From positions 480,001-544,000 of the IMG/VR virus record IMGVR_UViG_3300020045_008999: DNA of 64,000 nucleotides; one strand, 5' to 3'. The notes under the pieces are model-generated. The model was not told where the DNA came from. It did not search any database and saw only the letters and a program-made list of their open reading frames with translations. A program made the translations under genes and the position numbers. Of the stretch, positions 3,411 through 33,958 are shown piece by piece; the first letter of the stretch is position 1, and every line of letters starts with the position of its first letter. This DNA comes from a virus (Duplodnaviria; Heunggongvirae; Uroviricota; Caudoviricetes).

Positions 3411-4514
3411 ATGATCATAAATTTAAAGTCCGAAACTAACCTATCTGGGTTTTACATTGTTTATAAAGGATCTACGAATCTAGAAAAAAAAGGATGGCGC
3501 GGCATTTCACACCTAATGGAACATTTAGTATTCAAAAGTGTAGATCACCTACAAGAAGATTTCGATAGAGATGGCTTAGAATACAATGCATATACAAGTG
3601 GCAATGAAATTGTATTCTATTTGACCGGATTAGATAGTCGAGTTAATAAATGGAAAAGTACTTTCTTAAATTTGTTACTACAATTTCAAATTACCGAAGA
3701 GGAATTCCACAACGAACGAAAAATTGTACTGGAGGAATACATGGATTGCTTCAATGACCAATCACAAGTACATGCACTGAATCTAAGTAGAAAACTTCTT
3801 AATGATTTCGACGCAATTGGTTCCCGCCAAGATTTAGAAAATCTGACATATCAGGATATAATCGATTTTTTCGATTTACAATATTCAAAGCCTAGTAAAA
3901 TTATTAACGTTTCAAAGGATTCAAATTATTACAATGATTCAATTCAGTTCAGCGATATTGTAATAGACAAAACGTTCGAAATTAAATCGTACGATGTCGA
4001 TTTTGAGTTAAGAAATGAATTCAAAGATAAGACTTCCATAATTGCACTATCACCACTTATTAACGAAGACTTTGGTTATGTAAAATTCATAAACAGCATG
4101 TTATCCATGGGACTAATTTCACCACTATATGATGAAATTCGAGAAAAGAGAGGGTTGGTATACTATGTTCATTGCTATATGTCAATTGTGAATAAACAAG
4201 CGGCTACAATTATAGCAACCGTAACTTCAAATGAAAATACACAAACGGTAACTGATTGCATTGAAGAAATTTTATCAAATCCAGATAAATACATCACCCA
4301 AGAACGACTGGAAGTTGTAAAGGATTACTACATGGCCAGAAAAGAAATCAATGAAATACTAAGGTATAAAAATGTGGATAAATACATTTCAGATATGGAA
4401 ACAATTTATGATATTTTAGATTCCGTTAATTTAGAAAAAATTATTCAGGTCTATAAAAAATATTTTAATTACAGCACATTCCACATATCAAATGATAAAA
4501 CGGAATTTGTTTAA
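3411..4514 (+). CDS. M16 family (insulinase/pitrilysin-like) zinc peptidase
   Basis: Inverted zinc motif GISHLMEH, NAYTS, ERKIVLEE, LYDEIREKRGLVY. Confidence 0.92.
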   Translation: MIINLKSETNLSGFYIVYKGSTNLEKKGWRGISHLMEHLVFKSVDHLQEDFDRDGLEYNAYTSGNEIVFYLTGLDSRVNKWKSTFLNLLLQFQITEEEFHNERKIVLEEYMDCFNDQSQVHALNLSRKLLNDFDAIGSRQDLENLTYQDIIDFFDLQYSKPSKIINVSKDSNYYNDSIQFSDIVIDKTFEIKSYDVDFELRNEFKDKTSIIALSPLINEDFGYVKFINSMLSMGLISPLYDEIREKRGLVYYVHCYMSIVNKQAATIIATVTSNENTQTVTDCIEEILSNPDKYITQERLEVVKDYYMARKEINEILRYKNVDKYISDMETIYDILDSVNLEKIIQVYKKYFNYSTFHISNDKTEFV

Positions 4515-27392: not shown

Positions 27393-29194
27393 TGAAGTAT
27401 ATTAAAAAATTTATTAAAATCAATGAGTCTATTGATCATTTATTACCAGAAGAGGGTGGATATGCTAAACTAGGCTATCAAGAACACGGTTTATTCAGCA
27501 TCAGTTACCCAATTGATTACCAATACGATCTTCGTAGTGATATTTTAATGGATTCAATCAAAACCATGGCCGCGTTATGTGGTGATCCAGATTACCAATC
27601 AAGGACACATCTACCTCGCTTGGTATACAAGATTAATCATGATGAATCCTATGTAGATTTAAAGATGCATATGGATAATTGGATCGTTGTGACCAATCAA
27701 TATAGGGATGAGAATCATTATTTTATATGCGATGGTGAAGAAGGACTGAGTAAATTCATCAAACATTGGAATTATAATATTAGAAATAATAAAAACAATT
27801 TAACAATTTTAGAATCAGTTGACTACTTATTACCACCGGACAACAGTTACACCAGAGTAGGTGATACCAGATTTGCTGAATTTGTAAAAGAATACCCTTA
27901 TATAGAAGACGATACGTTAACACCAGAATTGAAAGATGTGATGCGAGTAATATATGAAAAATGTAGTGATGAAAATGCACATCTATCAAAGCGTGAAGCA
28001 TTATGTTCATATGTGACACCAAGTGAAAATCTATGGATTACTGCAACCGCCTCTGCACATACTGATAACTGGTATTCAATTAAATTTAAACTCGATAGTA
28101 TATATGTAAATCATGCGGCATATTACATTTGTGATGGTATTTCGGGTCTGGAAGAATTCTCACAGGACTGGACCGGATCACACCTTATACAAATTGACGA
28201 AAGTGTCTCTTATCTACCAGAAGGATCTTATTCGAAACTAGATGAAACCGACTTATTAAATTTCATAAATACCTATGGGAAACCACGTATCAATTTAGAG
28301 CTAATGGCGGAATTCAAATCTTATCTAAATACTAATGATATTATAATTATAGACCAAATATCTAGGAATGAGATTATCATAGTAGTACATGGTATGAAAA
28401 TAGCAACTAGTATTTCAGAACATACTGATATGTGGATTTCCATCGTTTATGGTAAAGATTTTTATATTTGTGATCAAGAAGCGGGAATGTATGAGTTATT
28501 CGATATGTTATTCAATAATCGTGTTTTAGAAAACGCTTCTTATTTACCAACCGGATTGTACTCAGAAATTAATGCAGATGATTGGACTAATTTCTTACTA
28601 ACATTTGGTACTGGTGACGTTGATAAACATACGATCGATACATTACTAGTTTATGCTAAAAGTATTGACATAGAACCAACTATTAAAAGCTATAATTATG
28701 GTTTCACACGACCAAATGGCGAACAGTTTTACGCAAGCGTATACAAACATGATGATCACTGGATAAGTGTACTAACATCCGATCGTGGCTTATTTTTATG
28801 TGACCAAGAAGATGGAATGATTGCTCTTTTCAGAGATGTTTTAATGCCAAATGAAAAAAATAACGAAACAATGATAACAGAAAGTATAGAAGACGACGTA
28901 GAAGATGGTAGCTATTTAGAAATTGATAGCGACGATGTTTTAAAAATATGGAAAGATTATGGACCATCGTCTTTTGATATAACTGAAATTGAACAATTAG
29001 CAGATACACTTGGTAAGGAATATTCAATCAATCGTTTTGAAAAAGGTAATATAATAACAATATATAGTCATTCACGACACGAGTCCTCACAGGTGTGTAA
29101 ATTCGATGATGGTTGGTTCATTTGTAATAATGAACCAGATGCAAATTTCCTTTGTGATCAAATTGCGGGTGTGATTCAATTTATTAAATTATAA
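27392..29194 (+). CDS. array-B paralog (5 domains)
   Basis: Units begin INES, ILES, IDES, VLEN, ITES; each has DxW and CD[GQ]xxG. Confidence 0.78.
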   Translation: MKYIKKFIKINESIDHLLPEEGGYAKLGYQEHGLFSISYPIDYQYDLRSDILMDSIKTMAALCGDPDYQSRTHLPRLVYKINHDESYVDLKMHMDNWIVVTNQYRDENHYFICDGEEGLSKFIKHWNYNIRNNKNNLTILESVDYLLPPDNSYTRVGDTRFAEFVKEYPYIEDDTLTPELKDVMRVIYEKCSDENAHLSKREALCSYVTPSENLWITATASAHTDNWYSIKFKLDSIYVNHAAYYICDGISGLEEFSQDWTGSHLIQIDESVSYLPEGSYSKLDETDLLNFINTYGKPRINLELMAEFKSYLNTNDIIIIDQISRNEIIIVVHGMKIATSISEHTDMWISIVYGKDFYICDQEAGMYELFDMLFNNRVLENASYLPTGLYSEINADDWTNFLLTFGTGDVDKHTIDTLLVYAKSIDIEPTIKSYNYGFTRPNGEQFYASVYKHDDHWISVLTSDRGLFLCDQEDGMIALFRDVLMPNEKNNETMITESIEDDVEDGSYLEIDSDDVLKIWKDYGPSSFDITEIEQLADTLGKEYSINRFEKGNIITIYSHSRHESSQVCKFDDGWFICNNEPDANFLCDQIAGVIQFIKL

Positions 29195-29195
29195 T

Positions 29196-29226
29196 AAAAA
29201 GAGAGAAACCTTCGGTTTCTCTCTTT
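29196..29226. terminator. bidirectional intrinsic terminator
   Basis: AAAGAGAGAAACC-TTC-GGTTTCTCTCTTT between array B and the convergent tRNA. Confidence 0.8.
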
Positions 29227-29230
29227 CTAG

Positions 29231-29302
29231 TTACGATACTAGGGCTCAAACCTAGGATGAGTGCGCCAAAAGCACTTGTGTTATCAACTACACCATATCG
29301 CA
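29231..29302 (-). tRNA. tRNA-Gln (anticodon UUG), CCA not encoded
   Basis: Cloverleaf TGCGATA-TG-GTGT AGTTGATA ACAC-A-AGTGC TTTTGGC GCACT-CATC-CTAGG TTTGAGC CCTAG-TATCGTA-A; U1-A72 pair. Confidence 0.88.
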
Positions 29303-29304
29303 AT

Positions 29305-29337
29305 AAAAAACCAGCCAATTCAAGTGAACTAGCTGGT
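29305..29337 (-). terminator. attenuator-type intrinsic terminator immediately upstream of tRNA-Gln
   Basis: Minus strand CCAGCTAGTTC-ACTT-GAATTGGCTGG-TTTTTT, ending 2 nt before tRNA position 1. Confidence 0.7.
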
Positions 29338-29365
29338 AAAAAAGTAAATTAGTTTATAAATAATA

Positions 29366-29446
29366 CTAATACATATAACAGACTAGATCAGATTGTACAA
29401 TCTGTCTACTCTGGATCGATAATAATATATTATTAATATTTTTCAT
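29366..29446 (-). CDS. putative 26-aa leader peptide MKNINNILLSIQSRQIVQSDLVCYMY
   Basis: ATG 4 nt after TTTTATATATA; Gln codons CAG, CAG, CAA at codons 12, 15, 18; not in the supplied ORF track. Confidence 0.6.
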   Translation of the reverse strand: MKNINNILLSIQSRQIVQSDLVCYMY

Positions 29447-29494
29447 AATGTATATATAAAATTTCACAGCTTCCTATTTGATTATTTACGATTT

Positions 29495-33179: not shown

Positions 33180-33259
33180 GTTTAAAATTCTTTAGGGTAT
33201 ATATTAAAAAGGAAGCATGTACATTTCTATATATATATCACAAAAATAACACACCAATT

Positions 33260-33958
33260 ATGGAAATGAATATCATTGGTATTGATCCCAGTTTAATATC
33301 AACAGCAGTCGTAATAAATGGTGTATTGTATAATTATTGTAGAGAAAAAGATGCCACAATTAAAAATGGATTAGCTAAATGGTTCAGAATGTGCGAAGAA
33401 TATATGAATCTGAGATATATTAGTTACCGAACATTTGAGGGATATTCAAATGGGGAATTAATAAAATTAAAGGATTATGATGCGATAACCGATATGATTA
33501 TCCATGACATCGAAAAGGCTATAGATAAAACGAAGCCAACCAGAATTGGGATAGAGGGCTACAGTTATTCGAGTGATGCTGGGGCCATAATTGATTTGGT
33601 CACGTTTTCCACATTATTGCGTAAAAAATTATTTGATCATATCAGCGAAGACATATTAGTATTATCACCAACATCACTTAAATTGGAGTCTTGTAAACTA
33701 ACCTATCCGGTAAAAGATGTTGGTAAAAAGAAACCAAAGTTAGAGTGGCGAAATTACCAAGGTATAGCCGGTGGTAAATTTTTAAAGAATGATATGTACA
33801 TGGCCCTGGTCGAAAATCAAAATCTAAATAGTGATTGGGTAAAACACCTACGCGATATCAAAGACGAAATGTTTGAAGGGAAAACTATCAAGAAACCGTA
33901 TGAAGATATGAATGATGCATTTTTGATATACACATTAATTCATGAAAAAAAGATATAA
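33260..33958 (+). CDS. RuvC-like Holliday junction resolvase
   Basis: RNase H-fold acidic motifs IIGIDPSLISTA, IGIEGYSY, EDMNDAF. Confidence 0.75.
   Translation: MEMNIIGIDPSLISTAVVINGVLYNYCREKDATIKNGLAKWFRMCEEYMNLRYISYRTFEGYSNGELIKLKDYDAITDMIIHDIEKAIDKTKPTRIGIEGYSYSSDAGAIIDLVTFSTLLRKKLFDHISEDILVLSPTSLKLESCKLTYPVKDVGKKKPKLEWRNYQGIAGGKFLKNDMYMALVENQNLNSDWVKHLRDIKDEMFEGKTIKKPYEDMNDAFLIYTLIHEKKI

Follow-up and report, generated by a model that had tools for sequence, protein, structure and literature searches.

We found that the tRNA-Gln(UUG) gene of an uncultured phage lies behind a unit that, with a probability of about 77%, is a trp/his-type ribosome-mediated (leader-peptide) transcription attenuator gating this tRNA gene. 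By computation, we observed the elements of such a device, their conservation and, across the units collected, a match between the codons of the leaders and the tRNAs behind them, as well as a match between each ORF and its own terminator arm. From these we infer translation of the ORF, ribosome stalling, read-through and a natural trigger. The first-pass annotation of this DNA had proposed the same interpretation, which drew support from an orthologous locus (L006), from sister blocks in the same genome, from further phage records including the cultured phage Gundel_1, and from a stall simulation. The window analysed here is a stretch of 64,000 nucleotides, bases 480001–544000 of the IMG/VR virus record IMGVR_UViG_3300020045_008999. 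The genome of this phage (G000) comprises 596,785 bp, is about 98% complete by estimate and has a GC content of 32%. The record contains 18 tRNA genes and a tmRNA; tRNA-Gln(UUG) is the only solitary tRNA, and the remaining tRNAs are arranged in four blocks. The parts of the Gln unit, in window coordinates, are as follows.

29470–29479, minus strand: upstream box 1 (AAATAGGAAG), a variant of AAAAGGAAG, which is common to the four tRNA leaders of G000; partly kept in L006.
29450–29461, minus strand: box 2 (TTTTATATATAC), presumed phage promoter or start context; conserved in L006, ends 3 nt before the ATG.
29366–29446, minus strand: leader ORF of 26 codons plus UAG (MKNINNILLSIQSRQIVQSDLVCYMY); same length, start and stop in L006.
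29393–29413, minus strand: putative regulatory Gln codons 12 (CAG, 29413–29411), 15 (CAG, 29404–29402) and 18 (CAA, 29395–29393); all three conserved in L006.
29379–29413, minus strand: hairpin 1:2, the putative anti-antiterminator and likely pause hairpin; −14.8 kcal/mol, z −3.8.
29378–29390, minus strand: segment 2, the 3′ arm of hairpin 1:2; assigned from its duplex with the terminator 5′ arm (−7.8 kcal/mol) and from the stall simulation.
29326–29337, minus strand: segment 3, the terminator 5′ arm (ACCAGCTAGTTC); assigned from folding and the duplex calculation.
29305–29337, minus strand: intrinsic terminator 3:4, with a 12-bp stem (29337–29310) and a U tract to 29305; assigned from folding, with one compensatory pair relative to L006.
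29230–29302, minus strand: tRNA-Gln(UUG), the putatively regulated gene; Rfam tRNA match of 53 bits, 2 nt after the U tract.
29188–29229, minus strand: second intrinsic terminator, closing the one-gene tRNA unit; −20.7 kcal/mol, z −6.7.

In the mechanism that we propose, transcription would start at or just before AAATAGGAAG..TTTTATATATAC, and the 26-codon ORF would be translated while the polymerase proceeds. Slow decoding of Gln codons 12 and 15 would leave a stalled ribosome holding the 5′ arm of hairpin 1:2. The freed segment 2 (29390–29378) could then pair with the terminator 5′ arm (29337–29326) and block the terminator, so that the polymerase would read into the tRNA gene 2 nt further on and RNase P would release the tRNA. 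During fast decoding, the ribosome would arrive at the UAG stop codon, which starts 10 nt after the end of segment 2, and would cover segment 2, allowing the terminator to form and the transcript to end. If the ORF were not translated, hairpin 1:2 would form and transcription would terminate too. As the product, tRNA-Gln, would itself relieve the stall, the unit would constitute a negative-feedback loop on Gln decoding capacity. The 597-kb genome would hold four such units, the window Gln unit among them, and each would be adjusted to the tRNA block behind it. A transcription start 3′ of the ATG would, if real, leave the leader ORF untranslated.

The elements described in the first-pass annotation were all found at the positions it gave. 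The motif TTTTATATATA is present at 29461–29451 (minus strand) and is followed 4 nt later by the ATG at 29446, and the ORF has the 26 codons and the three Gln codons that had been reported. Gln accounts for 3 of the 25 residues scored (P = 0.024 against a proteome frequency of 2.5%). The Gln codons are scattered, and two of the three are CAG, which the UUG anticodon reads through wobble only. They are located in the arms of hairpin 1:2, so their conservation could be structural. The hairpin had been recognized from its letters alone, and its predicted stability was matched by 0 of 200 shuffles. Folding also recovered the terminator, with a 12-bp stem (−16.9 to −17.4 kcal/mol, z −6.6) that is followed by U6 and, 2 nt on, by the tRNA. 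The proposed pairing between segments 2 and 3 exists, with 10 pairs, one bulge and one U-U, but is weak: as a duplex it reaches −7.8 kcal/mol, which 9% of shuffles equal, and when folded the 2:3 helix reaches about −10 kcal/mol. For the window locus alone, the hairpin and the terminators are thus clearly non-random, whereas the Gln enrichment and the 2:3 complementarity are marginal and only suggestive. An alternative GTG start (a 33-codon frame with AGGA 5 nt upstream) was ruled out by an in-frame TAG two codons upstream of the start in L006, which excludes the longer frame.

At equilibrium, the terminator (−16.9 kcal/mol) is favoured over the 2:3 pairing, as it is in the trp leader; like that of trp, the switch must therefore be kinetic. 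A kinetic simulation, in which folding stopped at the end of segment 3 and the ribosome footprint was masked, behaved in the way that the model requires. A ribosome placed at codon 12 or 15 yielded a 10-bp 2:3 helix before segment 4 was made. A ribosome at codon 18 covered segment 2. With the ribosome at the stop codon, or with no ribosome, segment 3 stayed essentially unpaired, forming no pairs with segment 2 and no more than 5 weak pairs in all. An Rfam scan of the window returned only the tRNA, with no leader family (His_leader, Trp_leader, Thr_leader, Leu_leader or Phe_leader) at E up to 1, and the T-box covariance model likewise gave no match on the window at E up to 1. A match to VrrA, a Vibrio sRNA, at window 29304–29416 (minus strand; 25 bits against a cut-off of 50, E 0.25) was rejected as chance, arising from the hairpin-plus-terminator shape of the leader.

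In G000, box 1 and box 2 are found together at the four tRNA leaders and, apart from these, only once. This additional site spans window 33209–33236 (plus strand; AAAAAGGAAG..TATATATATC) and precedes an ORF at 33260–33958, the 232-aa product of which matched no Pfam family. The box 2 pattern T[TA]ATATATAN is found 299 times in G000, mostly 3–5 nt or 16–23 nt before the ATGs of long ORFs. This bimodal spacing suggests that box 2 may be a phage promoter giving both leaderless and short-leader mRNAs. The late class to which the first-pass annotation assigned the motif is conjectural. Because box 2 usually precedes the ATG of long ORFs, the leader ORFs share the start context of real genes, and the 3-nt spacing at the Gln leader matches that of about 75 long ORFs of G000. 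In a genome-wide check, only the four tRNA leaders united box 2, a short ORF and a terminator; other short ORFs of G000 that follow box 2 had no terminator or tRNA behind them. A sigma-70 promoter scan found 34 sites against 34.1 expected in shuffles, with a model that is unsuited to a host with TAnnTTTG promoters. The first-pass annotation had noted that a separate promoter between the leader ORF and the tRNA would speak against gating, and we found no promoter-like site in that interval. The Met-Tyr block and the tmRNA of G000 have a TAnnTTTG box directly upstream, without a leader or a terminator. TAnnTTTG is the Bacteroidota promoter type, and the initiator/Met tRNAs and the tmRNA look constitutively expressed from such a host-type promoter. 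In these two cases the box reads TAC(A/C)TTTG and lies 12–16 nt upstream (G000 21222, minus strand, and 411350, plus strand).

We identified one ortholog of the window Gln unit, L006, on a 20.7-kb Logan contig; it was found through a 307-aa protein that is encoded two genes upstream of the leader and is 75% identical between the two loci. Gene order in L006 is that of the window: the 307-aa gene, a 69-aa gene, the leader, the terminator, tRNA-Gln and a convergent gene. The two sequences align without gaps from GAAA(T/A)TTTATATATA through the ORF, and DNA upstream of this motif could not be aligned. The leaders are 80–90% identical with the frame kept, and the L006 leader (complete peptide MKNIDNILSQQQSNQISQSVLAGYEY) has 26 codons with start and stop as in the window. 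Its Gln codons are CAA CAA CAG at positions 10–12 (QQQ), plus codons 15 and 18, amounting to 5 of 25 (P = 3 × 10^−4). Between the two ORFs, the ratio of substitutions at codon positions 1, 2 and 3 is 8:9:6. The peptide thus lacks conservation, in contrast to the frame, start, stop and Gln codons, as expected for a leader peptide. Compensatory changes are seen at two base pairs in hairpin 1:2 and at one in the terminator. Segment 2 of L006 (TTAGCTGGTT) directly repeats the terminator 3′ arm, and its 2:3 duplex (−12.3 kcal/mol; 0–0.2% of shuffles as good) is stronger than that of the window.

Other searches around this locus gave little. The two flanking proteins used as queries against IMG/VR had no relatives there, the 69-aa upstream protein, used as a query for homologs, matched only itself, and scans of IMG/VR and JGI metagenomes for exact tRNA 24-mers and 22-mers yielded nothing. 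Two more distant homologs of the 307-aa protein (L007 and L008) had no tRNA nearby. The sole match to the leader-start pattern (L009) was without a tRNA and was dismissed as chance.

Three of the four other tRNA blocks of G000, all outside the 64-kb window, are preceded by the same leader design: CAAAAGGAAG, 9–10 nt, TTAATATATAC, 4–6 nt, an ATG, a short ORF and a strong terminator 2–24 nt before the first tRNA. Their leaders are as follows.

G000 64147–63971, minus strand: leader MRTNTIHTTFKKSFKWFNHMFGCMTVVFSDIVLK (complete; begins MRTNTIHTTFKKSFKWFNHMF..) before Trp-Phe-His-Lys; cognate enrichment P = 1.4 × 10^−3.
G000 69791–69939, plus strand: leader MKTINNTSSSSRRSIPSEVHLCL (complete; begins MKTINNTSSSSRRS..) before Ser-Arg-Ser; cognate enrichment P = 1.6 × 10^−3.
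G000 423822–423645, minus strand: leader MKTMNLNTINNLNTLTVVNNTLCIRLTCYGGGIVV (complete; begins MKTMNLNTINNLNTLTVVNNTLCIRLTC..) before Val-Leu-Ile-Leu-Arg-Asn-Cys-Thr; cognate enrichment P = 2 × 10^−6.

Off-diagonal combinations of leaders and blocks in G000 were all non-significant for cognate enrichment. The 3′ part of each sister ORF is complementary to the 5′ arm of its own terminator (−10.0 to −10.3 kcal/mol; 0.8–2% of shuffles as good). These sister units were the decisive result for the attenuator reading. The cognate-codon enrichment and the leader conservation that the first-pass annotation had asked for at homologous loci were found in L006, in these three blocks and in further phages.

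We scanned IMG/VR for the bipartite motif and searched the matching records for tRNAs. This revealed three more huge-phage fragments (G001 to G003) with twelve further leaders, including the following.

Leader MKNLTLQQQQQMIKLD (complete): before three Gln tRNAs.
Leader MTTFTQQYQQQQIDREIDW (complete): before two Gln tRNAs.
Leader MKHFSSHKHSFKFWFS..: before His-His-Trp-Phe.
Leader MKTISSSSRSS..: before Ser-Arg-?-Ser.
Leader ..NPQPQVVIDQDP..: before Asp-Asp-Pro and three Gln tRNAs.
Leader MKNINLNMNLLNLME..: before Leu(tag), then Leu(aag), Leu(caa) and Met.

In the last of these, the codons CTA, CTT, TTG and ATG match Leu(tag), Leu(aag), Leu(caa) and Met codon by codon. Pooling cognate enrichment over 17 leaders from five phage records gave a Fisher combined P of 2 × 10^−28, a value that overstates independence, as the set includes homologous leaders. 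When the 17 leaders were permuted among tRNA blocks, 0 of 5,000 permutations scored as high as the real assignment, whether amino acids or codons were compared; this test addresses specificity and not independence, many of the leaders being homologous. A clear terminator lies 2–24 nt before the first tRNA in 15 of the 17. The ORF segment that pairs with the terminator 5′ arm is at or just before the stop codon in 14 of 15 cases and past it in one, and the match between ORF and terminator arm was better than 95% of shuffles in 11 of the 15 leaders. We also paired ORFs with mismatched arms across 20 leaders. Own ORF with own arm averaged −9.7 kcal/mol against −6.3 kcal/mol for mismatched pairs, a difference reached in 0 of 20,000 permutations, and the window pairing had rank 6 of 20 in this control. 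The terminators of homologous leaders are entirely different, and segment 2 follows them. A composition-blind pattern scan added six leaders on other contigs. A similar leader, L118, has three scattered Gln codons before a tRNA-Gln, and the Gln leaders of L006, G003 and G001 have 5–6 Gln codons each. Within the family collected, the window Gln unit is the weakest; of the Gln units it has the fewest regulatory codons and the weakest antiterminator, and it may therefore be less responsive than its relatives.

Several unusual tRNA genes were seen in these fragments. G003 (IMGVR_UViG_3300027749_000039) encodes a tRNA with anticodon CUA, of the amber suppressor type (L048, 2413, plus strand), and, inside its Ser-Arg-?-Ser block, a tRNA to which ARAGORN assigned a four-base anticodon (ctga; L049, about 6700, plus strand). 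In G002, a tRNA-like gene missed by ARAGORN directly follows the terminator (L046, about 3570–3650, minus strand).

The closest public match to the window tRNA was from Tenacibaculum phage Gundel_1 (MT732474), which is cultured with Tenacibaculum sp. AHE14PA, and the first tRNA block of this cultured phage has the same layout, with its leader at 72937–73060. A TAtgTTTG box is located 4 nt before the ATG of a 20-codon ORF (complete peptide MKTKLYSYSCFSSWFKNRAG), after which comes a terminator (−15.4 kcal/mol). The 5′ arm of this terminator pairs with a segment that overlaps the stop codon (−13.8 kcal/mol, 0 of 1,000 shuffles as good), forming a putative antiterminator. Behind the leader are tRNA-Phe, tRNA-Ser, tRNA-Ser and a tRNA match with the anticodon loop GCA (Cys). 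Two sub-threshold Rfam tRNA matches precede the Phe, Ser and Ser genes, and their anticodons are Tyr- and Trp-like by eye. Tyr and Trp codons in the leader peptides had led us to predict such tRNA-like genes in G002 and Gundel_1. Those of Gundel_1 (L161, 762–905, plus strand; 26–28 bits in Rfam) are absent from both the ARAGORN output and the GenBank annotation. The Rfam Phe_leader model matched Gundel_1 weakly, at 27.9 bits against a cut-off of 55.

For a host comparison, we inspected 20 tRNA loci in one complete Flavobacteriaceae genome, that of Flagellimonas sp. S174, and found a cognate leader ORF at none of the 20. Most of the loci listed had a TAnnTTTG box close to the tRNA. This single genome provides weak evidence that the device is specific to phages. 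Its Thr-Tyr-Gly-Thr block (L295, G005:C1:4007054–4007990) has a hairpin followed by U7 (−11.9 kcal/mol) without a leader ORF; the hairpin comes directly after a TAcaTTTG box and 26 nt before the first tRNA.

Two alternative explanations would dispense with the leader peptide altogether. One is that the locus is a plain leaky terminator of the upstream operon, with a chance ORF and unregulated read-through. A 26-codon open frame is not rare in AT-rich DNA (roughly 1 in 10, by estimate), and the single-locus statistics are marginal, but the leader stays 80–90% identical to that of L006 and in frame while DNA upstream of the motif is unalignable, and parallel units exist in G000 and other phages. 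We regard this explanation as scarcely credible. The other is antitermination by a phage protein or RNA bound to hairpin 1:2 or to the leader, the ORF being incidental. Phages commonly use antiterminators, and hairpin 1:2 is both stable and conserved. Such a factor, however, would leave unexplained why each ORF uses the codons of its own downstream tRNAs and why a terminator-matching segment lies inside each ORF near the stop, and the hairpins of different units have no sequence in common. These points make a factor-dependent mechanism very improbable.

The remaining alternatives accept the leader-peptide design and concern its present state or its signal. The window unit could have decayed into an idle attenuator that now acts mainly as a constitutive terminator, strong but letting a low level of unregulated transcription through to the tRNA. 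Its 2:3 pairing of only −7.8 kcal/mol (6 of 20 in rank) and its 3 Gln codons, compared with 5–6 elsewhere, would fit such a history. Against decay, the unit still has its start, stop, frame, hairpin 1:2, terminator and three Gln codons, and it shows compensatory changes relative to L006; the simulation still forms the 10-bp 2:3 helix; and the similar leader of L118 also has three scattered Gln codons. We consider decay improbable. It is also conceivable, though rather unlikely in our view, that the same device responds to Gln starvation or general translation stress and not to a shortage of tRNA. Leader-peptide attenuators sense charged tRNA, which also drops during amino-acid starvation, as established for trp and his, and sequence cannot separate the two signals. 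Extra uncharged tRNA would nevertheless be useless under starvation, and the genes regulated are tRNAs in every case, with codon-level matches, so that feedback on tRNA supply fits better.

Under the attenuator reading, cleavage of tRNA-Gln or a host anticodon nuclease is a possible, though unproven, trigger. A broader idea, which we put forward tentatively, is that the units together form a codon-by-codon tRNA homeostat, in which each block would be transcribed only when its own codons stall, so that the phage could detect selective loss of host tRNAs and repair it. If so, damage from anticodon-nuclease cleavage or from phage-induced decay of host tRNAs could be repaired without making unneeded tRNAs, and the Gln unit would be the single-tRNA form of a counter-defence sensor.

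The textbook cases of leader-peptide attenuation are amino-acid operons and a synthetase. Like trpL, hisL, leuL, thrL, ilvL and pheL of Proteobacteria, the units have a short ORF that carries putative regulatory codons, a 1:2 hairpin, a candidate 2:3 antiterminator (weak in the window unit) overlapping the ORF end and a 3:4 terminator directly before the regulated genes. The leaders of the sister units, which combine several amino acids, are similar to the multivalent leaders of thr and ilv. In contrast to trpL-type leaders, which regulate enzymes, the putative targets here are phage-owned tRNAs, so the product itself would relieve the stall. The window leader also falls below threshold for the Rfam leader families, and its Gln codons do not form a run. 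In the pheST (pheM) attenuator of E. coli phenylalanyl-tRNA synthetase, leader-peptide attenuation with cognate codons governs a translation gene. That system is bacterial and single-valued and regulates a synthetase protein, whereas the phage unit would regulate a tRNA gene. T-box riboswitches similarly control read-through into translation-related genes by a terminator/antiterminator choice that depends on the state of a specific tRNA. However, the T-box binds uncharged tRNA directly, through a specifier loop and the T-box sequence, without a ribosome or an ORF; the codons of the window unit belong to an ORF that has a start and a stop. Clustered tRNA genes processed from a shared transcript are also found in ordinary phage or host tRNA clusters, but these are promoter-driven, with neither a leader ORF nor a terminator between promoter and tRNA. 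The Met-Tyr block and the tmRNA of G000 follow this plain design, which was also the only one seen at the 20 Flagellimonas loci.

In the full-text literature that we searched, coverage of which is incomplete, we found no description of leader-peptide attenuation for tRNA genes. Such control would give a virus a simple means of adjusting its tRNA supply to codon demand, and perhaps of reacting to host defences that target tRNAs. It bears on the question of why and when phages express tRNAs, for which codon usage is usually the only factor discussed. Since several huge phages and a cultured Tenacibaculum phage share the design, it is testable at the bench. The leaders also serve as a sequence-based predictor of which tRNAs form one transcription unit and help to reveal unusual tRNAs that gene finders miss.

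The tRNA-Gln of the window (29230–29302, minus strand) has no encoded CCA end. Its D loop carries G18-A19 and its T loop U54-U55-U56, so that the usual G19:C56 pair of the elbow is apparently replaced by A19:U56, and the tRNA-Gln of L006 has the same apparent replacement.
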